Source: Azolla caroliniana
Lineage: Eukaryota > Plantae > Polypodiophyta
NCBI GenBank assembly: GCA_043228905.1
Contig: JBHGNT010000001.1
Location: forward strand, 8,742,001-8,806,000
Length of the DNA stretch: 64,000 nucleotides
Direction: 5' to 3'
A program made the translations under genes and the position numbers. Positions 4,048-43,884 of this stretch are shown in pieces; the first letter of the stretch is position 1; each line of letters opens with the position of its first letter. The notes beneath the pieces are model-generated. The model searched no databases, was not told the DNA's origin, and saw only the letters and a list, made by a program, of their open reading frames with translations.

Positions 4048-4057
4048 AGGGGGAGTT

Positions 4058-6643: not shown

Positions 6644-6813
6644 ACAAAAGACTTTCTATTCAATAGAAACAATAATACAACACCCAACCTTACAAGAAGG
6701 TTACAAGGTCACTATATATAGTGACCGACTTAGGGCAACTACCATTTATGCTAATTACACAAATGGCCCGAAGGGATAGTGTGAGTACGTCCATTATACA
6801 CTTGTATTCGACA
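6524..6813 (-). repeat. 5' LTR of copia-2 (290 bp)
   Basis: TG...CA termini on the minus strand, 2 nt from the PBS; (GA)n at 6615-6640; palindrome containing TATATATA at 6707-6726. Confidence 0.88.
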
Positions 6814-8324: not shown

Positions 8325-8684
8325 GGCGGTCTACGGAGGATCCTTCACACCGGTTCTAGAGACTTCGGCAGTTGGCAATGCGGTCGACGTAAGACTAAGA
8401 TACTGACGGTGGCGGCGAGGTGACGAAGGCAAGGGCTACGGAAGGGCGGTCTACGGAGGATCCTTCACACCGGTTCTAGAGACTTTGGCAGTTGGCAACG
8501 CGGTCGACGTAAGACCAAGATACTGACGGTGGCGGCGAGGTGACGAAGGCAAGGGCTACGGAAGGGCGGTCTACGGAGGATCCTTCACACCGATTCTAGA
8601 GACTTCGGCAGTCGGCAACGCGGTCGACGTAAGACCAAGATACTGACGGTGGCGGCGAGGTGACGAAGGCTATGGGCGTAAGGA
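8325..8684 (+). repeat. 120-bp tandem repeat x3 (more diverged related units continue to ~9000 and beyond)
   Basis: GGCGGTCTACGGAGGATCCTTCACACC recurs at 120-bp spacing. Confidence 0.93.
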
Positions 8685-16900: not shown

Positions 16901-18054
16901 AGGAGCACCTGGTATGCCGGTTGAAGAAGAGCCTTTACGGACTGAAGCAGGCTCCCCGGCAATGGTACCGGAAGTTCGACTCCTTCATGACCGACGAAGG
17001 GTACCACAAAACGCAGTCTGATCACTGCGTGTTTGTGAAGAAGTTCGAAGGAGGAGACTCTCTAATACTCCTCCTGTACGTGGACGACATGTTGATCGTC
17101 GGACGGGACCAGGTCAAGATACGGGCGCTGAAGAAAGTGCTTCACCGAACCTTCTCAATGAAGGACCTGGGTCCGGCGAGGCAAATACTAGGGATGCACA
17201 TCATCCGGGACCGGAAGAAGAAGCAGTTGTGGCTGTCACAGGAGAAGTACGTGACAAAGGTGCTTCAACGGTTCAACATATCGGAAGCAAGACCGGTCGG
17301 GTCAACCCTCCCGGCAAACTGCAAGTTGTCCAGCAAGCAAAGCCCCAAGACAAAGGCTAAGAAGGAGGACATGATGAAAGTGCCATATGCCTCTGCCGTC
17401 GGAAGCTTGATGTACGCAATGGTGTGTACAAGACCGGACATTGGATACGCAGTCGGAGTGGTGAGCCGGTATATGAGTAATCCCGGCAAGGAGCACTGGA
17501 ACGCAGTCAAATGGATACTCCGATACTTAAAGGGCACTTCGAACATGTGCCTCCGATTCGGCTCCGGTAAGCCCGAACTCGATGGATTTACCGATTCGGA
17601 CATGTCGGCTGATGCGGATACCAGCCGGTCTACATCAGGGTATGTAATGACATATGCAGGGGGAGCTGTTTCGTGGCAGTCGAGGTTGCAGAAGACGGTT
17701 GCGTTGTCAACCACGGAGGCGGAGTACATGGCGGCTGTTGAAGCCGGCAAGGAAATAATTTGGATGAAGGACTTCATTAGAGAGCTCGATATCCGGCAGG
17801 AGGAGTACCGGCTCTACTGCGATAGTCAGAGTGCCATCCACCTTGCGAAGAACGCGGCCTACCATTCCCGGACGAAACACATCCAGCGTAGATACCACTG
17901 GATCCGGGAAAGGATAGAAGATAAAGAGCTCGTACTGACGAAGGTCCACACGGACGAGAACGGGTCGGATATGCTGACCAAGGTGCTCACACCCGACAAG
18001 CTGGAAACATGCCGGAAGAGGATCGGATTGGAGAGACATCCCATGCCGAAGTGA
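13980..18054 (+). pseudogene. copia gag-pol with a single +1 insertion in an A-run (~15204-15209)
   Basis: ORFs 13980-15314 and 15223-18054 join to match copia-1; TTCAAAAAAGGGGAGC here versus TTCAGCAAAGGGAGC in copia-1. Confidence 0.93.
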
Positions 18055-18917
18055 AGGGGGAGTTTGTTGGGATTTCGGTCCCTCCGGATGGGATGTCCGG
18101 AGATGAATGACGGCAAGCCCGGTTGCGGTTACGGAACCGGATGATGAAGAGTACCCGGCATGAAGCCGGATGAAGAGTACCCGGATACGGATCCGGATGA
18201 TGAAGTACCCGGATACGGATCCGGATGATGAAGACCCCGGCTACGGAGCCGGATGCTGAAGACCCCGGCTACGGAGCCGGATGACGAATGTACCCGGAGA
18301 GAGATCCGGATGCGGGGACATATTTGTGAATATGTTTGCCAAGAGCCCTTGAGGCTATATTTGTAAATAGCCCGAAAGTCATATGTGTATAAATATGACT
18401 TAGGGCAAACAGTTTGTTGTTGTTGCTCATTTTATGTTTTCAGCCGAGAGAGCGAAGTGAGAGCAGCCGAGAGAGAGAGAGAGAGAGAAAGGAAGAGGTC
18501 GACGCCTCTGTGTATTACCGCCGCCTGTGGCGAAGACAGTGAGCTCAAGGTTGTTGCCTTGTAGCTTCACCATTGTACATCTCAGTGTATAGTGATAGTT
18601 GGAGTTTGAGGACTCCCGTGGTTTTTCCCATTTAGGGTTTTCCACGTAAAATCCCAGTGTACCTTTTCTCTCTACTGTCCTCGTGCACTTTGTATTTCCC
18701 AATTTCTGTGAGTTGATCCTATTCCTCGGTTGTGGCCGAGCACTGTTCATAACAAGGTATACGTGGAAAACCCCAAAATAGGGGAAAAAACCACGGCAGC
18801 CCACAAGCTGCAAACTGTCACTATGTAGAAATATACAACAGTGAGATCACTGAGGCAACGACCTCGTGCTCTCAGATCTTCGCCACAGGCGGCGGTTACA
18901 ACAAAGGCAACGACCTC

Positions 18918-18960
<43 letters not shown>

Positions 18961-21436
18961 CAGTTACGAGCTCTGATTTCTTCTTGCACCAACAAGAAAG
19001 AATAACCACAAAAAACGACAACTGCTAAAAAACTAAAGATTTGCCCTAAGTCATATTTATACTAATATGACTTTTCGGCTATTTACAAATGTAGCCTCGA
19101 TGGGCTCCATCCGGCTCTCAGCAGTCGGGTACTCCTCATCCGGTTCATACCGGATCTACACCATCCAACTCTCCGTAGTCGGGTACTCCTCATCCGGTTC
19201 ATATCGGGCCTACACCATCCGACTCTCCGAAGTCGGGTTCTCCCCATCCGGTTCATACCGTTTCGGCCTCGGCCTGTCGGCCTCGGCCGAGTTTGTTCGT
19301 CGGCACTGTTCTTCTCCCTTCCCATCCGGAGGGACCTGTCTACCAACATTACCAAAAGTTAAACGCCGTAACCATTACGGACGCATTCCCTTTACCATTC
19401 ACCGATAGTGTACTGGACGCCGTTGCAGGGCATGACATGTACAATTTTTTAGATGGCTTCAGTGGATACAACCAGGTACGCATGCATCCCGATGACCAAG
19501 AGAAGACGACATTTGTCACGGACTGGGGAGTCTATGTGGCAGTCGTCATGATGTTCGGGCTAAAGACGACGCCGACGACATTTCAATGGACAATCACGGA
19601 GATCTTTGGGGAATATATTCCGGCATTCATGCAAGTTTTGTTAGACGATTTTGCGGTATATGGGAAAACAACTGACCATTTTACGCATTTGCAATTGTGC
19701 CTGGAACGTTGCCGCACCGCACGCTTAAGCCCGAATCCCGCGAAATGTGCCTTCGGCGTTACCAACGGGGCTCTCCTAGGCCATATAGTTAGCAAGGAAG
19801 GGATAGCGGTCGATTCGAACAAAATCTCCGCGATTACTCAAGCTAAAACTCCAACAAACACGAAATCACTCAGCCGGTTTTTAGGATAAATACGATGGCA
19901 TAGTCGGATGATACGATACTTGGCGGACTTCGCCACGCCGTTACATGTCGCCGTGCATCGAACTCCCTTCCAATGGATTGCAATAGAAGACAAGGCCTAT
20001 GATGCGCTCAAGATAATGCTCACGCAGGCACCCGTCGTACAACGACCAATTTGGGTGAAGCCATTCCACGTGTTTGTAGACGCTTCAGACATAGCAATAG
20101 GAAGTGCGCTAATGCAGCTCACCGAACCGAATTGGTACCGGCTAGTGTACTACGCTAGTCGCAAATTATCAACAACGGAGCGTAACTATTCCACAAAGGA
20201 GCGTGAGGCGTTGGGGATGATCTATAGCATCAATAAATTCTGGCATTATTTGCTAGGGAGGAAGTTCACGTTCCACATGGATCATTCAGCACTGTTGTAT
20301 TTAGTGGAGAAACAAGCACTGACGGGGAAATTGGCGCGATGGATGCTACTGCTTCAAGAATTCGATTTTGTAATTCAACATCGCTTGGGTACGCAACACG
20401 CAGTGGTAGATTTTTTGAGCAGACTCGATAATGGAGAAACGACGCAGAAGGACGACGACGACTTTCCGGACGCAGACATTCTGTGGGTAGCAGCACTAGT
20501 TGGAAGAACGGAAACGACCTTTCCGGACCGGTGGCTCATGGAAATGACATACTTTTTGACTACGGGACTTCCTCCACCACAATTACGCACGAACGAGAAG
20601 AAACGATTAGCCGTTCGGAGCCGTAACTTCTGTCTGGTAGAAGGAATCTTATATCACAAAGGTAGTGATGGCATTCGGCGATGCGGTGTACGCTAGGATG
20701 AGAAAGAAGCGGTCTTACGGGAGGCTCACTGCGGCACGACAGGTGGACACTACACGGGCGATGTTACGGCCCGGAAAATATGGCAAGCAGGCCTATGGTG
20801 GCCGACTACACAAAAGGACGCATACGAGTATTGCAGAAAGTGAGATTTGTGTCAACGGATGGGCCAACCCACGAAAGGCGGCAGGGCATGGTGGTATTCA
20901 TCGAACACTCACCAACATCCGACAACATTTTTTCTGGCCCCATATGGAGTTGGATGTAAAAGACTATGTCCAATCCTGTGAGACATGCCAACAAGTCAAA
21001 GCTCGGCATGGATGACCATTTGAATTACTACAACCTATGCCAATACCCGCTCAACCATGGGATGTGGTGAGTATGGATTTCATAGTGGACTTGCCCATGT
21101 CAAGAGGTTATAATGCGATCATGGTGGTCATCGACTATTTCTCTAAACAAGCTCACTTTGTACCAACAAAACCACCCCTCATAGCTCTCTAGGTAGCTAA
21201 ATTGTGTTAGGATTTCGGTCCCTCTGGATGGGATATGAGTACCCGGCAAGGAAGACCCGGTGAGAACCTCTCACTGGATGAAGGGACATATATGTAAATA
21301 TGTCTCTGTTAACCTATTGTGGCTACATTTGTAAATAGCCCGAAAGTCATATTGGTATAATTATGACCTAGGGCAAACTCTTAGAGTTGTTGTCATAATT
21401 TTGTATAGAGTTATTAGTGTAACTGTTGTACAGTGC

Positions 21437-21473
<37 letters not shown>

Positions 21474-24400
21474 TCTGTTGTAACCGTAGCCAGGCGAAGA
21501 TTGTGAGCACGAGGTTGTTGCCTCTGTGTTCCCCTGATGTATTCCTCTTAGACATAGTGATAGTTTGGAGCTTGTGGGCTCCCGTGCTTTTTCCTGTTTA
21601 GGGTTTTCCATGTAAACATATTGTGTACTCTCTTTCAGTGTTTTCTTGTGAATACGTGCATCTATCTCCACATTCCCATTTCTGTGTTTGTAATTCTCAA
21701 TGAAGGAATTGAAGACTTGGTTGTGGCCGAGCATAACTCCACATAATCTCTCAATCTGGTATCAGAGCAAAATGACACAGAAAAATGGAAGATTTGTTGG
21801 GAGGCATGTTCAAGCTCACCGGCTCCAACTGCTCAGTGTGGAAGTCGAAGATGAGGGACATGCTCATGGTTAAAGATCTTTGGTTGCCGGTTCAGTTCGG
21901 GGACAAGAGATCAGACAAGATCGACGCCACGATATGGGAGGTGATGCATATGAAGACAACGGCGTACATACGGTGCTTCATCGATATGAGCCTGTACAAC
22001 AACTTCAATGAGGAGAGTAAGGCTCATGAGCTTTGGGAGAAGATCGGCATTATGTTTCAAAACAAAAATGTTGTAAATCGGGTTTCGGTATTTTGGATGC
22101 TAGTGAGGCTCCGGTACCAAGAGGGCTCCAGTATGGCAGAGCACATGAATGCCTTCCAGGGGCTGATTCACCAAGCAACATCATTGGAAGTACCTCTTGC
22201 TGATGAGGTACTAGCACTACTCCTGTTCGGTTCCCTCCTAGATAGCTGGGAGACGTTGGTTGTCACTTTGGGCAACGCCAGGCCGGAAGGGAAGTAGATG
22301 TCCCTAGCAAGAGTCAAGTCAAGCTTGCTAGATGAGGAGGCGCGTCGGAAAGACAAGGATACGAGCTCTGACTCCAAAGCGCTCCTTACCGAATCGGAAC
22401 GCGGAAGACAAAGGAAGCGGAGTCCCCAGAACCGGGAAAAGTCAGGGACAAGGTCAAAGTCAAGGGGGAGGACCACTTGCTTCTATTGCGGCAAGCCGGG
22501 ACACATCCAAAAGAATTGTCAGCATTTCTGGAAACCGACAGTACCGATTCGAAGCGGTCACCGGACCGGAACGGTAAAGACCGGAGGGGACTGGACCGGA
22601 AGGGAACGACGACAATCACAGCAAGTGAAGAGGAGTTGATGCTCATCACCGAGGAGAGTGAGTTGAACCTTGCCGGCGACGAGACAACGTGGGTTGTCGA
22701 TTCCGGAGCATCGTTCCACCTGACCCCGGACCGGAAATGCTTCTCAGCCTACACAGCCGGTGATCACGGTTGTGTCCGGATGGGGAATGAAGGTACGTGC
22801 CGAATTATCGGCATAGGAGATGTGTGGTTGACAACACCAACCGGATGCAAGCTGCTGCTGAAGGATGTCCGACACGTTCCGGAGGTTCGACTGAACCTGA
22901 TATCACAGGTCAGCTAGATGATGAAGGCTACATGGGTAGCATCCAGAACAGTGTCATGAAGTTCAGCAAGGGGAGCCTGATAGTGGTTCGGGTCCGTAAG
23001 GTCAACACACTGTACCTGATGAATGCCCGGTTATGCCCGGAAGAAGTGAACATTGCTTCCGACATGCCGGTGAGCTGTGGCACAAGAGATTGTGTCACAT
23101 GAGCGTGAAGGGGATGAAGAGGCTTGCCGATGACAACCTCATTCCGGTGAAGAACGTGCATTTTGAGAGGTGCACCGACTGCCAAGCCGGCAAGCAAAAC
23201 CGGACCTCCTTCCGATCAAGGCTACCAATGAGACATACTGCACCACTGGAGTTGGTGCATACTGATGTGTGTCACGTGGACACCAAGTCACATTGCGGAG
23301 CGCAGTACTTTGTGACGTTCATAGATGACCACAATCGGAAGTTGTGGGCCACACCGTTGAAGACGAAGGATCAGGTGCTATCCGTCCAGAAGCTGAAGGC
23401 GGTTCGAGCAGATAATGGAGAAGAATACCGGGGGCAGTTCGAGGAGTACTACCGCTCGAAGGGAATCCAACTCGAATTTACCGTGCCGAAGACGCCGGAA
23501 CTAAACAGGCTGGCCGAGAGGATGAACCAGACCATAATGGAGAGGGTTCGGAGTATGCTGGCACATGCAAAGTTACCCAAGACGTTTTGGGTTGAGGTGT
23601 TGGCGACAACGACATACGTTGTCGCGTTATTACGCGCGTGCGTGGAGAACAAGGCGGGACCACTGGGGTCTTGGACCGAGGAATAGGTGAGAAAAGGGGG
23701 GAGAAAGAGAGAGACGCTCACACACGTATAGACAAAGAAGTGCACGGGGACGCGGCCCAACAACACAGGAGACACGAGTTGAGAACACTAGCGTATGTAT
23801 ATAAAAGATGTATGTATTTGTATGTATGCAGACGACTCGAACGGTTATAGCCGATCAGGTCGGCGAGATGGATGCCGACGCCTGATCACCCACGCACACA
23901 TGGGATCAAGATGGAGATTCTTCCGGAAGCACACGGGCGTTCCACAGAGCAGAATCAGCCTCCTGAGAACCTGCACAAAAGAAAGCTATGGAGAACGACA
24001 GAGAAGAAGAGCTCGGTCCCAATCTGACAGCACTTCGTCCCCTCTAGCGCGCGATATCTCTCTCTCCCCCCCCCCCCCGTCTCCCTCTCTTTTATAGCTC
24101 AAGGAGGGAGACCGTTGTCGTGAAGATTTTCGTCCACGAGCGGAAACCCGAGCAACGAGAGCCAAAGAGCGATGTGCAACGTTGCACACATACATAATGT
24201 ATTTGTAATAATAATAGGGGAAAAGGGTATGGTGCTAGAAATGCCCCATAAGATCCCTAAGGTATAAAGGCGATGTGGTCTTATGCGCACATCCACGCGA
24301 GAGAGAGAGAGAGAGAGGTACTATGCGGTACATAGGTACCTAGTTGTTTGTGAGGAGGTGGGAGTTAAGGGGTCATCAATCTCACCCTCCCCAAATCAAG

Positions 24401-24811
24401 GCAAATATCCCCTTGTAAACGGTCTTCTCTCCTTGTGCTATAAAAGGAGAGGGAAGGTACCATTGTGAGCGTTGCCTATTTTGAGTGTGCGAGGTATACC
24501 ACATAGGTCGAGCGTTAGGGTTAGGGTTAGGGTTTCTTTATCTTGATCTTGATCTTCATCGGTTAGGGTTTCGAGTAGTCGTTTGGTGCTGCCTATGTGG
24601 CCACCATTTTGTAATCGTTCACTTCGTTTTAATATATCTTGTTGATCATCTTGTCTCCATCTTCCTCTTGTTCGATCTAATCTCTTGTTCATTCTTCTTC
24701 TTCTCGAGCAAAGCTTCCATTCCACGTCCGATTCCTTCTCCTCTACTCCTTAGTCCAAGACCCCCGTGGTCCCGCCCTTCTCCACACACGCGGGTAGCAA
24801 CGTGACATATT

Positions 24812-24829
24812 TGGTGAACCCGATGTGAA
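24812..24829 (+). promoter_or_regulatory. Primer-binding site, tRNA-Trp-like
   Basis: TGGTGAACCCGATGTGAA, 4 nt after the LTR; complementary (1 mismatch) to the plant tRNA-Trp 3' end as recalled (...TTCACGTCGGGTTCACCA). Confidence 0.85.
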
Positions 24830-26968
24830 TAGGCGGTAGAGGAGTAGAAGATGAGGGGGTCGGACCTTGCAGAAGCCATGGCTTTGGCTGTAGACCGTAT
24901 AGTGAGTGCGCGCAAAGGCACCGGCGCCCTTGATAGGGCTATCGAGGCGGTTGTTGGTACGATCGGCCGGTTTAGTGGGAAGGATGCCACGAGCTACTTG
25001 GCATCCTACCGGGCTGAGATGGTAATGAGGGACATTCCAGAAGAGAGGCATCTAGCCGGATTCCCTCGAATGGCGATGCCGGGTATCCATACGGAGGTGC
25101 TCGAGGTACGGGCCGAGAGCCGGACCTGGGAGGAGTTCGAAGGTCGGTTCCTCGAAAGATACGGGCTTGAAGATGCGCTTCGACTTTCGAAGCGGGACTT
25201 CATGGAGTGGGTGGAGACCCCCAACAAAGGAAGGAACGCGTCAGTGCTCTTTCGGGAGTTTGAGGAACGCTTCGCGTGCCTCTCAGTGCTTGACCGGACC
25301 GTTCTGGACACAAGCCGTGTCCTATTGTTTGTTAAGTCGGTTGACGAGCGGGATCGGGAGCTGGTAGGCCTCCTATCGGAGACTGATGACGGGCTGAAGG
25401 CCGACTGGGCTGTGGTGAAAAGGGTCTGTGGCCATTTCGACAAACGGCGGGAATGGGTTGACAAAGGATCGACAAGGGCGGGCTCTGTTGCAGCAAAGAA
25501 GCTCGAGCCAACACCACCAACACGAAGGGAAGAGACCCGAGATTGGCTCGAGACCGGGTTGGCTTCAACCGGCATGGTCAAGGGCTCATCCGGGGGAGCA
25601 ACTCTAGAGGAGCTGACGCGGATGGTAAAGGATCTCCAGATCGCCCAGGCACGGAGGGATGGTGGCGAACAAGCCCGTGACCTACGACCTCTGGCTGAAA
25701 ACAGGTGCATATGGTGTGACGTGGTTGGGCACATCCGGAAGGACTGCGGGGACTTCGCCGAGGCGATGAGAAGCAACGTGGTGTACCTGTGGAACGGTCG
25801 GGTGCACGCCAGCGAGACCCGAAGGGCCCTGAACCTGAACGTCGGGCGAGGGGGTATGAAAAGGCTGATGGAGGAGGCGGCGGCTCGTCACGCGGAGACC
25901 GTCCACTACTCAGCGTCGGCTGGTATTCGGGTCGGAGGTGGCGAGGCCCCGAAGACGAACAAAGCCGGGTTCTGGCCGACGATGCTGGAAGGCCTCGCCG
26001 GCGCACGGCTGAGGAAAGAAGATGTGGACCGCGCAGAAAAACGGGTCCGGGAGGAAACCGGGTAGAGTGACCCGGTGGAAGAAAAGACGGGCTTCGTCGA
26101 AGCCGGTTGTCAAAACTACGAGGCTCTGGTGGAGGGCAAGCGGGTAGGGAAAACCGGAGGGGCCGGGCCCTCGCAACGATATGAAACTCGATTCGGGCAA
26201 AGACGGAATGAGGCCGTTGTAACCGGCGCCCAGGATAATCCCAAGAAGGGCGGGTACCGGCTAGGCAAAGAAATCGAAAGATCCACGGACCTGCGAAGAG
26301 GTCCTGGAAGAACGAATCCTCGAAAACAAGGTGGAGCTATTGCTGAGGGAAGTGCTCGGGATCGCTAAGAAGGAGTTCCACGACTCCATCGTAGACTTGG
26401 TGAAGAGGAAGAGGCTGTCGACAGAGACAGAACCGGAGAAGCCGGTGGAGGTGCTAACGACGCACATAGAGGACATGGCGCTGGAAGACGAGTTGGCGGA
26501 GAGCCACTATTCGAGGCCGCACTAGGCCAGAGCGACCACGGAGACCCTCGTGAAGATCGGAGATGTTCATGAACCGGTGGTGGCGTTGGTGGACCATGGT
26601 TCCGAAATCAATTTGATGTCCATGGACTTCTATAAGAAGGGAAAATGGCCGATCAACACTAAGCACGGGTAGAAAATACAGGCGGCGATGCGTGCCACCG
26701 AAGAACTGCATGGAGCCTGCCCGAACGTACGAGTAAAGATCGGCGATGTCGAGATTGACCAACACTTGTTCGTGGAGGAGACGTCCTCACATCCGGGTAT
26801 ACTAGGAGAACCGTACATCACGACATCACGGATGGAGACCAAGGTGCTGGACAACGGCTCGGCCTATGCAAGGGTCAAGAGCCAGGATGGGCGTCACTCG
26901 GTCCAGTTCTTGACGGTGAGACCGAACCATGAGAGGAACCGCGAGACCCTTGGGGGCGAAAACCGGGA

Positions 26969-27034
26969 GGATTTTTGAAGAGGGCTATCAAGGCGTGGTG
27001 CCGCGATAGTCCGGACACTCCGGGAAAACCCCAC
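26969..27034 (+). promoter_or_regulatory. Candidate -1 ribosomal frameshift signal (G_GAT_TTT + stop + stem/pseudoknot)
   Basis: Heptamer 26969-26975, 6-nt spacer, stem GGGCTATC (26982-26989)/GATAGTCC (27005-27012); pol lies in the -1 frame; conserved at 37091-37026 on the minus strand. Confidence 0.75.
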
Positions 27035-28497
27035 AAGTGTATGATAGCGAAGAAAACCTCTGCTATAAGTATGGAATTTTGGTTCTCCGACAACGGAGGG
27101 TGTACGATAGTCGACGTTGTAGGCCAGAAGAAGAGAAGGGCGGAGGAGCGACTTCGGGCATGTGGCGTCCTCGACCTCGGAGAGGAAATCAACGGAGCCG
27201 TGGAGGCGGTCTCTTTCGACGATACCTTGGGGGAGCTGCGGGAGGTAGTCGGAGGAGTCCTTAAAGAGGACCAGACGATTCCGGTATGTTCGGAAGAGAT
27301 GTACGAAAGCATCGCGGACTTCAGTAGAGGGCTCGAGTCGGATCGGACGGCCCGGGTGGACACGAAGTACAAGACTGTGAACTGGAAGGTGAGGCCAGTC
27401 GCGGCTCCCTTACCGGAGGGCAACGAGTTGCGAATAAAGGGGGTTGCGTCGGACCCGAGTTTACGAAATCCGGCCCGCATAAGACACACGTTCACCGACA
27501 TAACGTTGCGCGAGCTCAAAATCGGTGGGGGCGGCTTCCTACTGCTGGCGGAAGAGGACCGTTTTCGGTGAATGCTCGGAAGGCATGGGACGGCTTTTCC
27601 ATTCTCACCAGAGGAGATCGGGTGTGTAGACCCGACAGTCGTGGAACCGATGGTGATATTCATGGTACCGCACGTGCCATGGAGTCTCAAACCGATTCCA
27701 GTACCCAGAGCTCACATCCCGAAGCTGATGGAGTTGTTAAAGGAGAAGGTCGAGATGGGAATCCTCGAACCGTCGAGTGCCCCATGCTCGAATCGGTGGT
27801 TTACCGTGCCGAAGAAGGACAGCACGCTGCGCTTTATTCAAGACCTGCAACCGGTCAACAAGGTGACCATTCGAAACGCAGGAATTGGACCGACAATAGA
27901 CGAGTTCGCGGAGGCCTTCGCCGGAAGGTCGATTTACTCGGTCGGTGATCTCTACTCGGGGTATGATCAGTTCCAGCTTGCCGTAGAGAGCAGAGACATC
28001 ACGACAATGCGAACTCCTCTCGGCCTAGTACGGATGTGTACCCTGTCGCAAGGAGGGACGAACTCGGTGGCTCACATGGTGAACACAATGAACAAACTGC
28101 TGAGGGATTGTATCCCGGACATCACCATGCCGTTTTTGGACGACGTCCCAATCAAGGGATGCCCGGTGGAGGAAAGGGACGAGACGATCAGACCGGACGG
28201 ATGCCGGAAATTCGTGGCGACGCACATCGATGACTGCGAGAAGGTGCTGCAGAGGTTGGAGGGAGCGAGGCTCACCTTCTCCGGGGGAAAATCGGCCTTC
28301 GGGCAATCAGAGATCATGGTCATCGGAGACCTATGCGGGCCGTACAGCCGGAAACCGTCTCCAGTTAAGGTAGAAGCCATTTTCGCGATGAAGAACGACT
28401 GTAGCTCGGTCACGGAGGTTCGGAGGTTCTTGGGAGCGTGCGCGTTCTACCACATATGGATCCTGCATTACGCTCACGTCGCGGAGCCGTTATACGG

Positions 28498-30146
28498 TGT
28501 CGAGGTATTCCTCGCGGGTGCGTGGAATGAGGCGGGACCTCGGGGGTCCTGTACCGAAGAGTAAGAGAGAAAGAGAAGAGACCCACTACGTGCGAGCGTA
28601 GATTCACAGGGACACGGCCCTTCGACGCAAAGACGCGAATGGGACAGCGACACAGAAAGACACGAAAGTATGTATGTATTGACAAGACAAACAACAAGAA
28701 CACGAAGACAACAAACACGAAGTCGGTTACAACCGAACAGGCCGGCGAACAGATGCCGATACCTGCTCGTAAACGCACAGAGGGGAAAGAGTAGGTTGGA
28801 GGTGCTGCCGGAAGCACTCGAGCATTCCTCAGAGCAGCGCGAGCCTCCCGAAACCTGCACAGCAGGAAGCTATGGCGCTTGCAACCGGAAAGAGAGAGAG
28901 AGAGAGAGAAGCCTTCGCACGCAAACCGACAACACTTCGTCCTCGACTCCCCGCGATCCCTCTACCCTCCTCGTCTCCCTCCCTTTATAGGCAAGGAAGG
29001 AGCCGTTTCCCCTTTACTCCCTACCTACCGAATCTACCTAGGATCTCCTATGTACAACTTAAGGCGCACGTGCATGAAGAGTCGGTTCCTACGCTCCGGT
29101 GCACCGATTCTGCTCGTGGACGGTTTTCTTCACGACATCCGCCCCCACCTAACCGCGCATCCACCGGCATGCGTCAATTGTGTTAGGACGGAGAAAACCG
29201 GTCTAGCCTTGATTCCCCGCCCGTCGGTTCTTCCTCGGTTTCGTATCGTTCATTGTCCCGGTCCAGGTCAACCGGATCCGGCTCGTCGTCGTGACGCTTC
29301 TTGAACGTCTTGATCCGCTTCCCAGCTACCGGTATCGCCATTCTCGTACCGTCGAGTTCCGCCAGATGGTACGTCCCGTTGTCGTTGGCGCTTTGTACCA
29401 CGTAAGGCCCGAACCATCTTCTTGCGAACTTCCGTGTCGCTCGGTGCTGGTTGTCGAGGCTGCTGTCGTAGACTAGCACCTAGTCGCCTTCCTCGATCTT
29501 CTTTGGTCGGAGCCGGTGCGTCCGGTCGAACCGGGCTTTGTTCCTCGTCCTGGCCACCCGAAGCTTTTCCGCAGCCTGCTCCACGTCCTCCGGTCTCCGC
29601 TCGAGCTGTCGTATGCGCGCCGTCAACAGTTCCTCCCGGCTCATCTCGTCTCTCTAGTCCACGGTTGCCCATGAGGAGACCGTACGTTCGATCGGCATGA
29701 TCGGCTTCTGCCCAAACATGAGCTCTGCCGGCATGAATCCGGTTACCGAACTGTGCGTAGTCCGGTCAGCCCACAACGCGTAAGGCAGTAGCCGCGGCCA
29801 GTTCCCGACTTGACCTCCGCATGCCCGAACTAACGCCTTGACGATCGGTCCGTGTCCGCGCTCCACCTTCCCATTTGCCTCTGGATTGTACGCAGTGGTA
29901 AGCGAGAGCTTGACCCCTAACCGGTCGAACAGCTCCTCGGCCTCCTCGGCGTCCAACTCCCCGCGATCAGCCATGATCTTCCCGACGCACCCGTACCGGC
30001 ATATCACGTCCTCGAGCAGGAACCGACATACGGCCACAGTCGTTTTGTTCTGAAGGGCCCGGCCTTCCACCTGGTTCGTTAGATCTTCCCGAGCCAGGAC
30101 CAGATACCGCATCTGTCCTACTCCTATCGGCATCGTTACCAGGTCG
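28498..30146 (-). mobile_element. Family-G copy G3, 3' part: 3' LTR 28498-29137, PPT, integrase core and C-terminus
   Basis: LTR ends CTTCACGACA; PPT complement TCCGCCCCCACCTAA; DLVTMP, ADRGE, NGKVERGH, RWFGPY. Confidence 0.9.
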
Positions 30147-33100
30147 TCACGTACGCCGTCATCGTCGGTCAATCGTTGTCGCCCATCCGCCGTATGCATG
30201 CTTGTGTCTCGACCCTCCACCGGCCGTATTGCATGCGTCTCGTGTCGCACTTCCGCCATAGACTCGACCTCCGCATCGGTCTCCAACTCCTCGCCGCCAC
30301 CCACCGTTTCCTCATTCTCCTTTCGATCCGCGACCGTCGATGCCTCACGGGTAGGTGTGGAGGGTTCTTCCCACTCTCGGTCCACCACCGAGTCCTCGCC
30401 TCTCAAAGGCTCAATCGGTCCACCGTTTCCGGTCACTCGTTGACGCTCTCTCGGATGCATGCTCGTTCTTGGGCCCTTCACCGACCGTAGTGCATGCTTC
30501 GTATTACGCCCTTCATTCGCCGTAGACCCGACCTCCGCGTCGGCCACTTCTTCCTTTGTCACCGTAGCCCGTTCCGACCCGAGCTCGCCATCTTGGACCC
30601 GCTCGTCCATCATCTCATACCGGATACCCGCTCCGATAACTTTGTCCGCTTCGGCCTCCAACTCCTCGCTGCCACCCACCGTCTCTCCGGTCTCACGTTG
30701 ATCCGCAACCGCCGAAGTCTCTAGAATGGGTGTGGAAGGTCCCTCTCACTCTCGGTCTTCTAGCAAGCCGTGATCACCGTGCCCACTAGGCCTCCTCAAT
30801 ACGCTCACCGGCTCTCGTCGCGTGTTGTGACCCGTCCTCCCCGATCTCCAATCATGCCGACTTAGCCTTCGCCCGGATCGGTCTCGGCCGATCGAGTTTC
30901 GGTTTGGTCGGCTCCCTTCCGTAATCGTAACCGGCCGGTACATGTTTGTCCGCGCAAATCCGGCCTTGCCGGTTCTTCTTCGGTTTGGGCCCGGTTGATC
31001 GGACCCCGCTTCACCCTTCTTCCGCTCCGCCTCCCGGTCGGGTCGGATTACCGACCGGCTCATCTTTCGGTCGGGTCGGTTCCTGACTCGCTCCTTGATG
31101 CTGCTCTGAACCTCTCCTTCGGCCTTTTCGCACGTGCCCACTCTGGGCCTCTCATCCTCACAGCCACCGCCCATCTCTCCGGTCTTATGTCCGTGCTCGG
31201 GCGGTCGAGGGATCTCGCCTCCGTCCGCTACAAACCTTCTCTTCGTCGTCTCGGTTGCCCACCTTGCCGCCGCCACCGTCCGTCTCTCTAGGTCTCACAC
31301 CGGCTCTCGGGCCGGTTGCCGGAGTCTCTAGGACCGGTGTGTGGAAGGTCACGGAACCGCCGCTCGTCTCCTCTTCTTCCTCGATTTCGCAAGCCTCGAG
31401 TATGCTCGCGAAATCCTCGTAGAACGTTTCGGGCAACCGCGTCCCAAAACTTTCGCCCACTCTCGAAGCGGCGTCCATTGCTCCGTAGATATCGGCCTTA
31501 TCCATGGCTGTCCTCTTTCCACAAGTCGAGAGGGTCGCTCGCTCCGCACCCTCTCCCACATCGTTGCCGTGGTCGCCCGCCTTGCCGCCGCCACCGTTCG
31601 TTACCCTAGGTCTCACGCGGGCACTCGGGCCGGCCGCCGGGGTCTCTTGAACCGGTGCGTGTAAGGTAGCAACGCCGCCGCTCGTCGATGCTATGCCCGT
31701 AGCCACCTCCATTCGGACATCGTCATCCGTGGCTAACACGCCTCCGTATATGCAAGCATCAATTATGCTTGCCGCCTCCTCTTCCACGGTCTCCTTACCG
31801 TTGTCTCGGTTGCCCGCCTTGCCGCCGTCACCGTCCGTCACTCTAGGTCTCACACCGGCTCTCGTGCCGGATGCCGGAGTCTCTAGGACCAGTGTGTGGA
31901 AGGTCGCGGCACCGCCGCTTGTCTCCTCCTCACTCGATGTTTCGGGCCTCCATGCCCGAACTCCCTCATTTCCGTTCGAACCGGCGATCGCCGCCTCACC
32001 ATCCCCGACCTCGTCCTCGGTCGATCTTTCTCCGCATGTCGAGAGGGTGGCTCGCTCCGCACCCTCTCCTGTGGTACCGATGTACCATTCTCTTTCGGCC
32101 TCCTCATCCTCCGATCCGCTCAGCCCCGACTCCGCAATAAGCCCTTCTTCGGTTTCGATTTGTGCCTCTACAATCTCGTACGCTTCCCGCACAAAGGCTT
32201 CAATGTCGAGCTCCTCCGAACCGATTTGCGTTGAGGCTCTTCCGGCGGTAGTGCGTAGTCGGTCGCCGCTCTCTCTTCTCCGCCGCTCGCGGGCCGCGTT
32301 GTGGCCGAGCACCTCTCATCGCATTGTATGCACGCCCATTCCACCTCGTTCCAATCTTCGGTGAGGCCGTACGCCCCTTCATTGTCTTCGAGGTAGGGAA
32401 AAATGGCCATTCTCCCTCATTCGTTGACCGACTTCAAGAATAGTGGGACCTTGTCCGCCCCCACCGATTCTTGATCCCGGACCGAAAGTTGGGAAAACCG
32501 GAGATCGAACTCCCGGAATGCCTTCATTGCGCTTCGAGGAGCCTTTGCCGACGACACCCATAGATCGAAGTCGCGTCGATCGTACTTGTACGCCTCTTCC
32601 CGTCCTTCTCTCCTTCTTGCGAAATCCCTTGCCATTCTCGTAATTACTTCCGCGATGTCTTCGGCTTCCATCTCCTTCCTCCCTTGCCGCCTCTTCACGT
32701 CGGGTTCACCAAATATGTCGCGTTGTTACGCGCGTGCGTGGAGAACAAGGCGGGACCACCGGGGTCTTGGACCGAGGAATAGGTGAGGAAAAGAGAGAGA
32801 GAGAGAGAGAGAGAGAGACGCTCACTCACGTATAGACAAAGAAGCGCACGGGGACGCGTCACAACAACACAGGAGTTGCGAGTTGAGAACACTAGAGTGT
32901 GTATGTAAATATAGGCATGTATTTGTATGTATGCAGACGACTCGAACGTTTACAGCCGACCAGGTCGGCGAGGTGGGTGCCGACGCCTGATCACCCACGC
33001 ACACAGGAGAGCAAGATGAAGATTCTGCCGGAAGCACACAAGCGTTCCACGGAGCAGAATTAGCCTCTCGAGAACCTGCGCAAAAGAAAGCTATGGAGAA

Positions 33101-33412
33101 CGACAGAGAAGAAGAGCTCGGTCCCAGTCCGACAGCACTTCGTTACTTCTAGCGCGCGATCCCCTTCTCTCCCCGGTCTCCCTCTCTTTTATAGCTCAAG
33201 GAGGGACGCCGTTTCACTCGTTTACATCACATTAAATCTCTGTCCTTTCGGAGACAGAGATACTCCTTGATTTCCCTTACAGAATATTGCTACTTGGGAT
33301 TTAACCTTTGTGCCTACCTATCTACTATACGACAAGGGACGTGCCCACGTGTAAGGGTCGGTTCACACACACTATACACGGTTTGCGCCTGGGGACGGTT
33401 TTCTTCACGACA
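30147..33412 (-). mobile_element. Non-autonomous family-G derivative G4, 5' part: 5' LTR 32716-33412, PBS, divergent gag, acidic repeat region
   Basis: PBS 32694-32711 TGGTGAACCCGACGTGAA; GADKVPLFLKSV...GLTEDW; repeated FHTPVLETPA...VRPR.TDGGGGK module shared with 6814-10055. Confidence 0.85.
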
Positions 33413-33658
33413 TCATTTCACCCGTTTACATCACATTAATTCTCTCTATAGAATATTGCTGCCTAGGATTCGACTTTTGTGCCTACCTATCTACTATACA
33501 ACAAAGGGGCGTGCCCACGTGTAAGGGCCGGTTCACACACGCTATACACAGTTTGTGCTTGGGGACGGTTTTCTTCACGACATCCGCCCCCACCTAACCG
33601 CGCATCTACCGGTATGCGCCAAAATTGGGTTCCTACTGGAGATAACCGGCCCTTGCTT

Positions 33659-36600
33659 TTATTCCTCGTTTACCGGTTCGTCCTCTGCCTCGGGCTGCTT
33701 GTCGTTGCTGTCCATGCCCCCTAGCTCCGGCTCACCGTCGTGCCGTTTCTTGAACGCTTTGATCCTCTTCCCCGCTACCGGTATCGCCATTCTCATACCG
33801 TCGAGCTCCGCGAGATGGTACGTCCCATTGTTGTTGGCGCCCGTTACTACATAAGGCCCGAACCACCTCCTCGCAAACTTCCGCGTGGCCTTGTGCTGAT
33901 TGTCGAGGCTGTTGTCGTAGACTAGCACCCAGTCGCCTTCCTCGATCTTCCTTGGCCTGAGCCGGTGTATTCGGTCGAACCGAGCTTTGTACCTTATCCT
34001 CGCTACCCGAAGTTTCTTCGCGGCTCGCTCTACGTCCTCCGGCCTCCGCTCGAGCTGTCGAATCCACGCCGCCAACAGTTCCTCCCGGCTCATCTCATCC
34101 CTCCAGTCCACCATGGCCCACGAGGAGATCGTTCGCTCTGTTGGCATGATCGGCTTATGTCCGAACATAAGCTCAGTCGGCATGAACCCGGTTACCGAAC
34201 TGTGCGTAGTCCGGTCCGCCCACAAGGCATAAGGTAGCAGCCGTGGCCAGTTCCCGACTTGGCCTCCGCACACCCGTACTAGCACTTTGACAATCGACCC
34301 GTGTCCACGCTCTATCTTCCCGTTCGCCTCCGGATTGTACGCTGTGGTGAGCGAAAGTTTGACTCCTAGCCGGTCGAACAGCTCTTCGACCTCTTCTGCG
34401 TCCAACTCACCACGGTCAGCCACGATCTTCCCTACGCACCCGTATCGACATACTACGTCCTCAATCAAAAACCGGCACACGGTTGCAGTTGTCTTTTTCT
34501 GCAAGGCTCGGCCTTCAACCTGGTTTGTTAAATCCTCCTGAGCCAGCACCAGATACCGCATCTGTCCTACCCCCATTGGCATCGTCACCAAATCCACCAT
34601 CCACTTGAAGTGGATGGTCGGAGGGTAGGTCGGGTGAAGCTCGTCCCGATGTTGGATCATGCAGTGCACCTGGCAGCTTTCGCAAGTCGTCACAAACCGA
34701 TGCATGTCCCGGTATAGTCCCGGCCACCAGTACTTCCTCTTTAGCTTTTCGAACGTGGCCCACGTTCCACGGTGTCCAGCCCAAGGACTATTGTGGAACG
34801 CCGCCAGCAAATCCTCTTGTTCCTCCTTCTTCGCCACCACTCGGAGCGGGATGTCGTTCCTCTTCTTCGGGTGCTTCCATATGTACCCGTCCCGGAGAGA
34901 GAATCGGTACGCTTTCTTCCGAATCCGGTTGGCCTCATCCTTTGTCCATGCCGCGTCCGGTGTCATTGTTTTCAGGAACCCGCCAATCTGCAGCCACTCC
35001 CCGTTGTACTTGCTCTCGTCGAAATCGTTAAGCGTTGGAGTGCATTCCCTGCCGGTTGTTACGTAAGCCGCCTCGAAGAAGTCCACGCCGACTTCCTCGT
35101 CCTCCGAAACCATGCCACCCTCGTTTTCGAACCTCGTTCTTGAAAGCATGTCGCCCATGGCATTGTCTTTCCTGGAAATGTGTCGTACTTCCGGATTTAG
35201 GGACTTGATGTACACTATCCACCTGAGCATTGCCAGGTCCGGCGTCACGCATCCGGAAACCATGCCAAGAATTGGCAGGCAGTCCGTCTCGATAATTACC
35301 TCTGTCCCGATCAGGTATTCTTTATCGGCCTTTACCGCCGAAACGATACCCCAGAGCTCGCGTTTAACCTGGGCGTATCCTCGTTGTCGCTCGCTGAGGA
35401 CCTTCGCGCCGAACCGGATCAGGAAACGCATGCCGTCCCGGTCGGACTCGTGTCTACCGTTACGTAAATTGGAGTGTCCTTTCTGTAGACAGCCTTTCGG
35501 AGCGCCGGAGCTGCGGCAAGTGCTTCCTTCATCTTTTGGACAGACTCCGTATGCTCGTCTCTCCACTCGAATTTTCGACCCTTTTTCAGCAACCCGTATA
35601 ACGGCTCCGCGACGTGGGCGTAATGCGGGATCCATATGTGGTAGAACGCGCATGCTCCCAAGAACCTCCGAACCTCCATGACGGAGCTACAGTCGTGCTT
35701 CATCGCGGAGATGGTTTCTACCTTAGCCGGAGACGGTTCTCGGCCGTACGACCCGCATAGGTGTCCGACGACCATGATCTCTGATTGCCCGAAGGCCGAT
35801 TTTCCCCCGGAGAAGGTGAGCCTCGTGCCCTCTAACCTCTGTAGCACCTTCTCGCAGTCATCGATGTGCGTCACCACGAATTTCCGACACCCGTCCGGTC
35901 CGATCGTCTCGTCCATTTCCTCCACCGGGCATCCCTTGATCGGGACGTCGTCCAAAAACGGCATGGTGATGTCCGGGATACAATCCCTCAGCACCTTGTT
36001 CATTGCGTTCACCATGTGAGCCACCGAGTACGTCCCTCCTTGTGGTAGGGTACACATCCGTACTAGGCCGAGAGGAGTTCGCATTGTCGTGATGTCTCTG
36101 CTCTCTATGGCTAGCTGGAACTGATCGTACCCCGAGTAGAGATCACCGACCGAGTAAATCGACCTTCCGGCGAAGGCCTCTGCGAACTCATCTATTGTCG
36201 GTCCAATTCCTGCGTTTCGAAATGTCACCTTGTTGACCGGCTGCAGGTCTTGAATAAAGCGCCGCGTGCCGTCCTTCTTCGGCACAGTAAACCACCGATT
36301 CGAGTATGGGGCACTCGATGGTTCGAGGATGCCCATCTTGACCTTCTCCTTTAACAACTCCATCAGCTTCGGGATGTGAGCTCTGGGTACTGGAATCGGT
36401 TTGAGACTCCACAGCACATGCGGTATCGTGAATATCACCATCGGTTCTACGACTGTCGGGTCTACGCACCCGATCTCCTCCGGTGAGAATGCGAAATCCT
36501 TCCCGTGCCTTCCGAGCATTCCCCGAAACCGGTCCTCTTCCGCCAACAGTAGGAAGCCGCCCCCACCGATTTTGAGCTCACGTAGCGTTATGTCGGTGAA

Positions 36601-37085
36601 CGTGTGTCTTATACGGGCCGGATTTCGTAAACTCGGGTCCGACGCAACCCCCTTTATTCGCAACTCGCTGCCCTCCGGCAAGGGAGCCGCGACTGGCCTC
36701 ACCTTCCGGTCCACAGTCCTGTACCTCGTGTCCACCCGGGCCGTCCGATCCAACTCGATCCCTCTACTGAAGTCCGCGATGACTTCGTACATCCTTTCCG
36801 AACATACCGGAATCGTCCAGTCCTCTTTAAGGACTCCTCCGACTACCTCTCGCAGCTCCCCCAAGGTATCGTCGAAAGAGACCGCCTCCACGGCTCCGTT
36901 GATTTCCTCTCCAGGGCCGAGGATACCACATGCCCGAAGTCGCTCCTCCGCCCTTTTCTTCTTCCGGCCAACAACGTCGACTATCGTACACCCTCCGTAT
37001 AGGTCTTCTTCGCTATCGTACACTTGTGGGGTTTTCCCGGAGTGTCCGGACTATCGCGGCCCCACGCCTTGATAGCCCTCTCTAA
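33659..37085 (-). pseudogene. Family-G pol (RT-RH-INT) of G1, frameshifted; no chromodomain
   Basis: LPQGGTYSV, FLDDVPIKG, YVTVDTSPTG, YAQVKRELWG, AGHRG...CESCQ, VDLVTMP, ADRGE. Confidence 0.92.
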
Positions 37086-39208
37086 AAATCCTCTCGGCTT
37101 TCGCCCCCGAGGGTCTCACGGTTCCGCTCATGGTTCGGTCTCACCGTCAAGAACTGGACCGAGTGACGCCCATCCTGGCTCTTGACCCTTGCATAGGCCG
37201 AGCCGTTGTCCAGCACCTTGGTCTCCATCCGTGTTGTCGTTATGTACGGTTCTCCTAGTATAACCGGATGTGAGGACGTCTCCTGCACGAAGAAGTGTTG
37301 GTCAATCTCGACATCGCCGATCTTTACTCGTACATTCGGGCAGGCTCCATGCAGTTCTTCGGTGGCACGCGTCGCTATCCGTATTTTCCACCCGTGCTTG
37401 GTGTTGATCGGCCATTTCCCCTTCTTGTAGAAGTCCATGGACATCAAATTGATTTCTGAACCGTGGTCGACCAACGCCACCACCGGTTCATGAACATCTC
37501 CGATCTTCACGGGGGTCTCCGTGGTCGCTCTGGCCCAGTGCGGCCTCGAATAGTGGCTCTCCGCCAACTCATCTTCCCGCACCATGTCCTCTATGTGCGT
37601 CGTCCGCACCTCCACCGGCTTCTCCGGTTCTGTCTCTGTCGACAACCTCTTCCTCTTCACCAAGTCTACGATGGAGTCCTGGAACTCCTTCTTGGCGATC
37701 CCGAGCACTTCCCTCAGCGACAGTTCCACCTTGCTGTCGAGGATTCGCTCTTCCAAGACCTTTCGTAGGTCCGTGGATCTTTCGATTTTTGTGCCCAGCC
37801 AGTACCCGCCCCTCTTGGGATTATCCTGGGCGCCGGTTACACCGGCCTCATTCCGCCTTTGCCCAAATCGAGTTTCATATCGTTGCGAGGGCCCGGCCCC
37901 TCCGGTTTTCCCTACCCACTTGTCCTCCACCAGAGCCTCGTAGTTTTGACAAGCGGCTTCGACGAAGCCCGTCTTTTCTTCTACCGAGTCACTCCACCCG
38001 ATTACCTCCCGGACCCGTTTTTCCGCGCGGTCCGCCTCTTCTTTCCTTAGTCGTGCGCCAGCGAGGCCTTCTAGCATCGTCGGCCAAAACCCGGCTTGGT
38101 TCGTCTTTGGGGCCTCGCCACCTCCGACCCGAATACCAACTGACGCCGAGTAGTGGACAGTCTCCGCGTGACGAGCCGCCGCCTCCTCCATCAGCCTTTT
38201 CATACCTCCTCGCCCGAAGTTCAGGTCCAGGGCCCTTCAGGTCTCGCTAGCGTGCACTCGACCGTTCCACAAGTACACCACGTTGCTTCTCATCACCTCG
38301 GCGAAGTTCCCGCAGTCCTTCCGGATGTGGCCAACCGCGTCACACCACATGCACCTGTTTCCAGCCAGAGGTCGTCGGTCACGGCCCTGGTCGCCACTGT
38401 CCCTCCGTGCTTGGGCGATTTGGAGATCCTTTACCATCCGCGTCAGTTCCTCCAGAGCTGCTCCCCCGGACGAGCCCTTGACCATGCCGGTCGAAGCCGA
38501 TCCGGTCTCGAGCCAATCTCGGGTCTCTTCCCTTCGCGTTGGTGGTGTTGGCTCGAGCTTCCTTGCTGCGACAGAGCCCGCCCCTATCGATCCTTTGTCA
38601 ACCCATTCCCGCTGTTTGTCAAAACGGCCACAGACCCTCTTCACCACGGCCCAGTCAGCTATCAGCCCGTCATCAGTCTCCAATAGGAGGCCTACTTGCT
38701 CCCGATCCCGCTCGTCAACTGACTTAACAAACAATAGGACACGACTTGTGTCCAAAATGGTCTGGTCAAGTACCGAGAGGCGCGCAAAGCGTTCCTCAAA
38801 CTCCCGGAGGAGCACTGACGCGTTCCTTCCTTTGTTGGGGGTCTCCACCCACTCCATGAAGTCCCGCTTCGAAAGTCGAAGCACATCTTGAAGCCCGTAT
38901 TTTTCGAGGAGCCGACCTTCGAACTCCTCCCAGGTCCGACTCTCGGCCCGTACCTCGAGCACCTCCGTATGGATGCCCGGCATCGCCACTCGAGGGAATC
39001 CGACTAGACGACTCTCTTCTGGAATGTCCCTCATTACCATCTCAGCTCGGTAGGACACCAAGTAGCTCGTGGCATCCTTCCCACTAAACCGGCCGATCGT
39101 ACCGACAACCGCCTCGATAGCCCTATCAAGGGCGTCGGTGCCTTCGCGCGCACTCACTATACGGTCCACAGCCGAAGCCATGGCTTATGCGAGGTCCGAC
39201 CCCCTCAT
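37082..39208 (-). pseudogene. Family-G gag-protease ORF of G1, with nonsense mutations
   Basis: Aligns with 24851-26978; CMWCDAVGHIRKDC; ALVDHGSEIN...ILGEPY; ends REDF*. Confidence 0.92.
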
Positions 39209-42200: not shown

Positions 42201-43884
42201 AAGAGAGAAAGAGAGGGAGAGAGATAGAGTGTGTCTTTGTTGTAACCGCCGCCAGGCGAAGATTGTGAGCACGAGGTTGTTGCCTCTGTGTTCCCCTGAT
42301 GTATTCCTCTTAGACATAGTGATAGTTTGGAGCTTGTGGGCTCCCGTGGTTTTTCCCATTTAGGGTTTTCCACGTAAACATACTATGTACTCTCTTTCAG
42401 TGTTTTCTTGTGTATACGTGCATCTATCTCCACATTCCCATTTCTGTGTTTGTAATTCTCAACGAAGGAATTGAAGACTTGGTTGTGGCCGAGCATAACT
42501 CCGCATAATCTCTCAAATTGTTCTTCAAATATATCTTTAAATATCATGGCATGCCTACGGCTATCGTATCAGATAGGGATCCACGTTTTACTAGTCGATT
42601 TTGGCAAGAACTATTCAAATTGTTGGACACACAACTTCGAATGTCTTCGACGGCTCATCCCCAAACTGATGGCCAAACGGAAAGGGTAAATCAGAGTCTT
42701 GAAGACTACATTCGTTGTTATGTGCAGGTGGATCAAAAAGATTGGGTGGATCATATCAATATGCTGGAATTTTGTTAAAACTCCTCTAAATATTTTGCCA
42801 CTGGGTTTTCTCCTTTTGAATTAGCTACAGGGAAGCAAGTTCTTACTCCATTGGCTTTGGTCTCTCATGTTGTTCGAGATAAAATTAAAGAGCCCAATGT
42901 CGATCTTTTTCTAGCACATTGGCAAGCAACAATGTGGGTTGCACAACAAGGATTACAACAATCAAAGGAACGAATGGTTCGGGCAGCTAACAAAAAACGT
43001 CAACACATCGAATTTTTCAAAGGTGACTTGGTCCTCGTTAGTGCCGTTCATTGGCCTTTACCTAGACGACTCTCACCTAAATTTAACCATTGTTTTTATG
43101 GGCCATATGAAGTGCTACAAAGTTTTAATGGAGTCACTTACAAGCTCAAATTACCTAGTTCTGTCAAGGTGCATGATACATTTCATGTAAGTTTGCTTAA
43201 GAGATTTCATGCAGATAAACATTGGAGTCGGAAAACTAACCTAAGTGAGGAAGCTGAAAAACCTGAAGCAATCTTAAAACAACAAGTGTGCAATGGAAAC
43301 ACGAAATTTTTGATCAAGTGCAAAGGGCAACCACTTTCGGAAGCCACATGGATCTCTGAAGAAAGTTTGTTTCGTTCGGATCCCTCATTCTTGTTCGGGT
43401 ACCCTAGCTCTAATTAGTGCTACAATGGCAAGGTTTTAGACACTGCCTACGGTATTAGTATGGTAAGACCACCTTTGTCATTGTCCTTTGTTCCTTTTTT
43501 CTTTTATTTACTTATGGACTTAGCAAGTCATGTTATTGTACTAGTGTTTTAGTTTCGAGGGCGAAACTCTTCACCTTGTGGGAGAGTGTTATGTTATGGA
43601 GTAGTTAGAAGTAGATAAATTAGGGGAAGATTGGTTGGGATCAACTAGAGAAATTAGTGGTCAAGTAGCTAGAGAAATTTGTGGTGAAGTAGTTGAGCCC
43701 ATGGGTATTTAAGTAGGTTGTGTGCATAAAGAAGGGCAAGCTGGTTTTTGGGAAATTAGGGGGATACCCCCAATGTAATACCTTCTCTTTAATATAGAAA
43801 ATACTCTTTCTTCTTATTGAACTGAATACCCCTTGTCTAGAATTCTTTCTCTCTCTTTCCAGTGCTTTGTAAAAGTGAGAGTGT

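Follow-up and report, generated by a model that had tools for sequence, protein, structure and literature searches.

In the alpharetroviruses, represented by Rous sarcoma virus (RSV) and MAV, the protease is encoded in frame with Gag and is equimolar with it (PMC3185560), and a −1 ribosomal frameshift with a pseudoknot leads into pol (PMC5009743, PMC3542737). Both the −1 mechanism and this gag-pro/pol layout are already known from that group (PMC3185560), even though one account places the RSV protease in pol (PMC5009743), at odds with the other. On plant ribosomes, G_GAU_UUU is a tested −1 site of pea enation mosaic virus, an umbravirus in which a stop codon close by helps (PMC4737148); the XXX triplets tolerated at such sites include GGA, and the usual spacer measures 5 to 9 nt (PMC3542737). 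Among plant LTR retrotransposons, Ogre and Retand likewise carry GAG-PROT in ORF1 and RT-RH-INT in ORF2, separated by a spliced intron in Ogre and by a single in-frame stop in Retand (PMC6317226). The REXdb table of these lineages contains none in which a GAG-PROT frame overlapping RT in a different frame prevails, and it gives the ORF organization of the Phygy lineage as "not determined" (PMC6317226, supplement MOESM5). A 2003 survey, as cited in PMC5009743, recognized split frames in just two types of plant element, each of them +1. The literature searched, which included few subscription papers or repeat databases and may leave earlier accounts aside, described no frameshift in Phygy, no protease/RT −1 pseudoknot in plant retrotransposons and no −2 site in a retrotransposon. 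A +1 shift between pro and pol is associated with the Dictyostelium element Skipper. One account of Skipper places its protease in ORF2 and lends that shift no support (PMC5006619).

The stretch of DNA analyzed here (the window, 64,000 nucleotides from the 523-Mb genome of Azolla caroliniana) is a nest of LTR retrotransposons with four levels, each with an NCGN site: a copia element contains element G1, the 3′ LTR of G1 contains element G2, and the RT region of G2 contains a further relative. G1 lies on the reverse strand and spans positions 23620 to 39854 including its nested inserts, flanked by the target duplication ACGT/ACGT, with its coding part (gag-protease, RT, RNase H, and integrase) at about 39211 to 33661. 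G2 lies on the forward strand and begins with a 5′ LTR (24116 to 24807, TG...CA, with CCGT on its left flank), followed by a primer binding site that complements the 3′ end of tRNA-Trp (24812 to 24829) and by a gag-protease frame (24851 to 26978) with a CCHC knuckle, a DUF4100 domain, and the aspartic protease motif DHGS at 26592. This frame is broken at four points, three of them stops and the fourth an extra base. The pol of G2 is read in the −1 frame (26969 to 28497) and consists of a linker of about 140 codons and then RT, with the Pfam RVT_1 domain at about 27806 to 28327. It is cut at 28497 by a degenerate related element on the reverse strand (28498 to 33412), inserted after ACGG. Pfam matches on the G1 and G2 frames follow the order DUF4100, weak aspartic protease, RT, RNase H, and integrase, and only the Ty3-like RT was confirmed by a search against solved structures. 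G2 is a dead copy. It and G1 are both broken representatives of a Ty3/gypsy LTR retrotransposon of Phygy-like type.

The two copies are about 92% identical internally, and their LTRs (24116 to 24807 versus 39250 to 39854) align over the last ~70 bases only, a mismatch that suggests LTR exchange between subfamilies. Elsewhere in the window, Ty1/copia copies with RVT_2 and copia gag domains occupy positions 1 to 4750, 14010 to 18747, 22241 to 23619 together with 39850 to 41961, and 4679 to 5920; the copy at 14010 to 18747 has gag-protease and integrase-RT in separate long frames. Fragments of another gypsy lineage lie at 19179 to 21000 and at 42458 to 43417, the latter with a chromodomain match. 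Tandem repeats of 120 bp and 133 bp at 6780 to 8981 and 31244 to 32576, within degenerate relatives, contain long low-complexity frames without a Pfam match.

The assignment to a family follows the description of Phygy in REXdb as a non-chromovirus Ty3/gypsy lineage with a 4-bp NCGN duplication, a tRNA-Trp primer, the domain order GAG-PROT-RT-RH-INT, and no chromodomain (PMC6317226). Twenty long genomic loci delimit elements of 6.9 to 8.0 kb (7.7 to 10 kb in REXdb, a range taken from one species; PMC6317226), with NCGN duplications exact in 10, one base off in 4, and unscored in 6. The primer-site pattern has 6,212 matches in the source genome, a few of them tRNA genes, and all five matches in a tRNA context are tRNA-Trp(CCA) genes, also from this genome, whose 3′ end is complementary to the site. 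The frames of G1 and G2 give the order GAG-PROT-RT-RH-INT by Pfam, with neither a chromodomain nor an extra domain, and the nearest named proteins come from Physcomitrium patens, with relatives also among fern and liverwort entries. The elements can thus be classed as Phygy-like, a class set by duplication, primer site, domain order, and nearest homologs.

Forty of the 80 regions sampled downstream of a tRNA-Trp primer site (L200 to L279, G000:C1) lack a protease end over the next 3.4 kb. Among them, L211 is a tRNA gene, and many of the others may be non-autonomous or deleted elements that use the same primer. The tRNA-Trp 3′ pattern also occurs in dense clusters (G000:C8:17796786-17823371, C16:4989495-5105657, and C5:10105608-10112201, with a spacing of about 1.2 kb on C8), which may be tRNA genes arrayed in tandem. 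No relatives were found in viral contigs, and a GTDB scan retrieved one contig with this retrotransposon junction (L171, CADCWO010000092.1, in a cyanobacterial bin), which is probably plant or other eukaryotic contamination of a bacterial bin.

The junction between protease and RT in G2 consists of the slippery heptamer G_GAU_UUU (GGATTTT at 26969 to 26975) and a 6-nt spacer (26976 to 26981) that opens with the gag-protease stop TGA (26976 to 26978). Next comes a predicted pseudoknot whose first stem and loop (26982 to 27012) pair GGGCTATC at 26982 to 26989 with GATAGTCC at 27005 to 27012. Its second stem (26995 to 27034) pairs the loop bases 26995 to 27000 with CCCCAC at 27029 to 27034, in full over 6 bp in G1 and with one mismatch in G2. 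The copy of this cassette in G1 (37026 to 37091, reverse strand) has the stop TAG, with a 31-nt deletion just downstream. The preliminary description, made from these two copies, had noted each of these elements, and all are present in the sequence. The breaks in the two gag-protease frames differ in position as it had stated, with stops at 26063, 26523, and 26670 and the extra base at 26298 in G2, and stops at 39187 and 38239 in G1; the −1 frame of G2 connects the heptamer to RT and is interrupted by a single nonsense codon, at 27569. The gag-protease frame of about 700 codons that had been pieced together from G1 and G2 needs no reconstruction, since genomic copies with 709 to 714 open codons end at the heptamer site and open frames of 710 codons are numerous among them.

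The frame relationship was followed across many copies. The pattern of heptamer, stop, and stem has 2,960 matches in the source genome and none in the reversed control, and GGATTTT is intact in 25 of 30 close copies. Among 81 loci from outside this genome, with protease identities of 59 to 97%, an RT match was present in 62, of which 57 are continuous from the site to RT in the −1 frame, 2 in the +1 frame, and 3 are broken; the 19 without an RT match are mostly short or end early. Within the genome, 91 loci (including 3 duplicates) comprised 48 continuous in the −1 frame and 30 in the +1 frame, the latter reduced to 27 by removal of the duplicates and all belonging to a single family. In an unbiased sample of 80 regions picked by the primer site alone, a protease end was present in 40: 26 were continuous in −1, 5 interrupted in −1, 1 was of a true +1 type, 4 were damaged copies scoring as +1, and 4 had no RT match. 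The +1 score of one locus (L239) is the effect of an upstream deletion. A single frame from protease to RT, the arrangement named beforehand as contrary evidence, was found in no locus of the outside, own-genome, or primer-site samples. Full-length copies with both frames open reach 710 plus 1152 codons (−1) and 739 plus 1150 codons (+1/−2), and young copies, with LTRs 98 to 100% identical, retain two open offset frames.

For comparison between families, 133 of 206 loci with a continuous pol frame and at least 150 open codons upstream were retained and clustered into 34. Three clusters without a heptamer at the anchor and two damaged copies were then left out, and four loci and G2 were added for alignment. 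Among 33 family representatives, which were anchored on the heptamer and selected with these same exclusions, the heptamer is GGAUUUU in 27, GGAUUUC in 2, GGGUUUU in 1, GGUUUUC in 1, and GGUUUUU in 2, and all 31 −1-type representatives have a heptamer of the X_XXY_YYZ type (GGA variant) in frame 0. The stop after the heptamer varies among TAG, TGA, and TAA. In three loci (L081, L108, and L110), and in database proteins ending in GEVPL, RMPL, or LGVPL, the stop is found five codons past the heptamer; because it sits inside stem 1, the last gag residues of this type are set by the stem sequence.

Comparison of the junctions supports both predicted stems. A MAFFT alignment of the cassettes required no internal gaps, and in this alignment of 34 diverged junctions, built from sequence only, 263 of the 272 cells in the 8-pair core of stem 1 are paired; compensatory changes on both sides number 32 and fall in 6 of the 8 pairs. 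Positions slid along the alignment as controls are paired in 28 to 42%. Covariation over 12 pairs of stem 1 scores 0.410 against 0.227 after shuffling (0 of 500 shuffles as high). In a pseudoknot search, the best fold outscores every one of the 40 mononucleotide-shuffled controls for 26 of 31 clusters; both sets of shuffles treat related families as independent. Stem 1 is also part of the minimum-energy fold of both window copies, with folding z scores of −2.8 (G2) and −2.2 (G1). Stem 2 is specific to the family: its score is 546 with the family's own partner, 475 ± 13 in cross-family swaps (0 of 20,000), and 393 with shuffled partners, and co-changed pairs such as GCGAGA/UCUCGC and CAAGG/CCUUG occur. 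It is short (4 to 8 bp) and mostly pairs a G-run with a C-run, and the own partner is the best partner in only 5 of 34. A possible extra pair in 13 of the 34 alignment rows would bring the spacer to 5 nt; prediction and covariation together place a candidate stimulatory structure within 5 to 9 nt of the heptamer. A candidate third stem within loop 3 (GGACACUCC in G1 and G2) was dropped, being unconserved across families. Rfam models gave no match at E ≤ 5 between positions 26850 and 27150. The junction structure could also act in RNA packaging.

These comparisons, which the preliminary description had put forward as the way to check its proposal, bear it out. They establish, across the families aligned, a layout in which pol follows the gag-protease ORF as an ORF in the −1 frame, a conserved heptamer and stop, a covarying stem 1, a family-specific stem 2, and a coding linker. 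The junction in the window is very probably a programmed −1 ribosomal frameshift on G_GAU_UUU, with a predicted H-type pseudoknot 6 nt downstream. Under this mechanism, the majority of ribosomes would terminate and release a Gag-protease of about 710 amino acids. In a minority, tRNA-Asp and tRNA-Phe would slip from GAU UUU to GGA UUU, giving a Gag-protease-RT-RH-IN fusion of about 1,870 amino acids, so that protease would be made one-to-one with Gag, and RT and integrase would be rationed. The comparison with some retroviruses drawn at the outset is supported, as the layout is that of alpharetroviruses (PMC3185560).

In all 11 family pairs compared, which share members, synonymous sites differ less across the cassette than across the linker, and pN is below pS when the linker is read in the pol frame. 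The first result indicates constraint on the RNA at the site, the second a linker that codes for protein. Among 198 homologous proteins in databases, including entries from moss, fern, and liverwort, 139 end in [DNGV]F 0 to 6 residues from the C terminus, right after the protease, while 39 continue past the protease, 17 end otherwise, and 3 are cut. The run-on proteins that match pol rejoin it at codons 1, 10, 17-18, 36, 46-50, 61-67, 77-88, 109, 134, and 245, a scatter that would be expected of gene models bridging the frame change with predicted introns, as judged from the protein sequences. One protein (P0185, 1,374 amino acids) may be a single-ORF relative.

Introns placed at the junction by these gene models are one argument for joining pol by splicing, through either an Ogre-like intron or a spliced pol mRNA with its acceptor at the U-run and AG. 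Ogre itself provides a precedent (PMC6317226), and a U-rich run with an AG within 6 nt past the heptamer is present in 29 of 33 families. Splicing is nevertheless very unlikely here. The AG is missing in the other 4 families and variable in position, GT is missing between −12 and +8 in 20 of 33 families with no conserved donor, the gene-model re-entry points vary, and the retained X_XXY_YYZ-like heptamer would be left unexplained. With its linker open and under coding constraint in 11 of 11 pairs, the junction offers no non-coding intron of the Ogre type, and the Retand arrangement, with one stop between the protease and a pol in its own frame, was found in none of the loci sampled, so that neither plant precedent fits. 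Three poly(A) RNA runs contain few reads on G2 (142, 87, and 249), mostly less than 95% alike, with a depth of about 1 to 4 at the junction. Among 15 of the 20 joints from these sparse reads, none is GT..AG, and a 68-nt skip at 27113 to 27182 with AC..GA ends is carried by six reads in one run and a single read in a second.

Separate translation of pol, by termination-reinitiation or internal initiation, is slightly less probable still for the family in the window: no AUG lies within the pol-frame overlap in the 31 −1-type families, and their first downstream Met falls anywhere from codon 3 to codon 111. Transcriptional slippage at the five-U run, which would place some RNAs in frame, gains from the conservation of a homopolymer run at the site. 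It is highly improbable, since the run is merely 4 to 5 nt in most families, the covarying downstream structure sits at ribosome-spacer distance, and slippage would presumably also change the genome copied from the slipped RNA. Finally, that the offset is decay or artifact, with active elements being single-ORF or read through at the stop, is suggested by the broken state of G1 and G2 and by a few database proteins that run through, and it is refuted for the sampled families and has a negligible chance overall: young copies hold the two open offset frames, the identity of the stop varies, and readthrough is ruled out because pol is never continuous in frame 0.

A +1 junction, another arrangement that the preliminary description had named as speaking against a −1 site, does occur, in one sister clade only, where the cassette is kept and the offset reads best as a −2 variant. 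The clade consists of two families, one in the Azolla genome (QVFD, with a gag-protease of 739 codons) and one on a metagenome contig (L088, QVFY), and its loci are G000 L137 to L170, L187 to L191, and L285 to L314 and metagenome L085 and L088. Pol is open in the +1/−2 frame over 1,150 codons in QVFD and 1,097 in L088, and the cassette of the clade has 92 genomic matches against 0 in the control. Four full-length QVFD copies have LTRs 99.7 to 100% identical, so this family has recently transposed in its +1/−2 form. Midpoint-rooted trees of protease and RT group the two families as a single clade among −1 families (support 100/99 and 100/100). Between them, dS is about 1 in RT and 0.18 over the cassette.

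The site of this clade is AG_GUU_UUU, and the homologous stem begins 5 nt downstream, one base closer. The alignment shows the five-U run and the pseudoknot still in register with pol, and the gag frame alone displaced by one base; a −2 slip here would therefore arrive at the same codons as a −1 slip elsewhere. In QVFD, the −1 frame meets an immediate UGA in most copies. The sister clade is a candidate for pseudoknot-driven −2 slippage, switched from −1 with the pseudoknot kept, and on present comparative evidence this is the reading we somewhat favor. On this view the gag frame shifted its register by one base within the U-run, which gave AG_GUU_UUU and left a −2 slip as the sole way into pol. 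The reading is limited by the single origin of the two families and by the poor P-site re-pairing from GUU to AGG, and the 5-nt spacers that support −1 in plant viruses (PMC4737148) count against it, as does the 5-nt spacing that the extra pair would allow in 13 of 34 rows. In engineered U6A constructs, −2 is favored when the spacer is 1 to 2 nt shorter (PMC3458567). The sister clade has, with the same weak P-site re-pairing, the −2/−1 site G_GUU_UUU of arterivirus nsp2, which in those viruses depends on a C-rich motif bound by nsp1β and PCBP in place of the pseudoknot predicted here (PMC6675879). By eye, the arterivirus C-rich CCCANCUCC motif 10 nt downstream is absent in the sister clade, and stem 1 is there instead.

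Reinitiation at a nearby AUG is a possible, if unlikely, route to pol in this clade. A pol-frame AUG lies 17 or 26 nt before the stop in both families, and reinitiation AUGs are known up to 29 nt upstream (PMC3542737). However, these AUGs differ in position between the families and derive from Asp/Asn codons, a chance AUG of this kind occurs in 9 of 31 control families, and the UGGGA motif is absent within 110 nt upstream in both +1 families; moreover, AGGUUUUU and the pseudoknot have been retained despite an RT dS of about 1. A spliced pol or a +1 slip is more doubtful again, and for the slip the move from UUU to UUG would be non-cognate in the QVFD family. Poly(A) reads on the +1-type element number 14, 5, and 2 in three runs, and zero cover the junction. 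Slippage by −2 in one lineage, if it holds, would be the part that surprises specialists, as a switch from −1.

The −1 families differ from their nearest counterparts in several respects. Alpharetroviruses share the strategy, whereas the present elements are plant LTR retrotransposons without env and with another heptamer, so the likeness is probably convergent. Pea enation mosaic virus has the same heptamer, a stop at or just after the site, and plant ribosomes as the setting, but it relies on a bulged stem-loop with long-range pairing (PMC4737148), in contrast to the compact, local H-type pseudoknot predicted here. The preliminary description had cited red clover necrotic mosaic virus for this heptamer; the source used here documents it in pea enation mosaic virus (PMC4737148).

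The layout described here fills the gap left in REXdb on the polyprotein arrangement of Phygy (PMC6317226) and explains the invented introns in moss and fern database gene models of these elements. It represents an alpharetrovirus strategy in a plant retrotransposon, apparently reached by convergence, and it predicts that protease is equimolar with Gag. Natural variants, available by the dozen, offer a ready-made series for studying how frameshifting works on plant ribosomes. Should the sister clade slip by −2, the model of spacer length and mRNA tension, so far addressed with engineered constructs, would become testable on natural pairs. A eukaryotic mobile element would then provide a natural −2 frameshift driven by RNA structure, and its −1 sister families would serve as built-in controls for that model.
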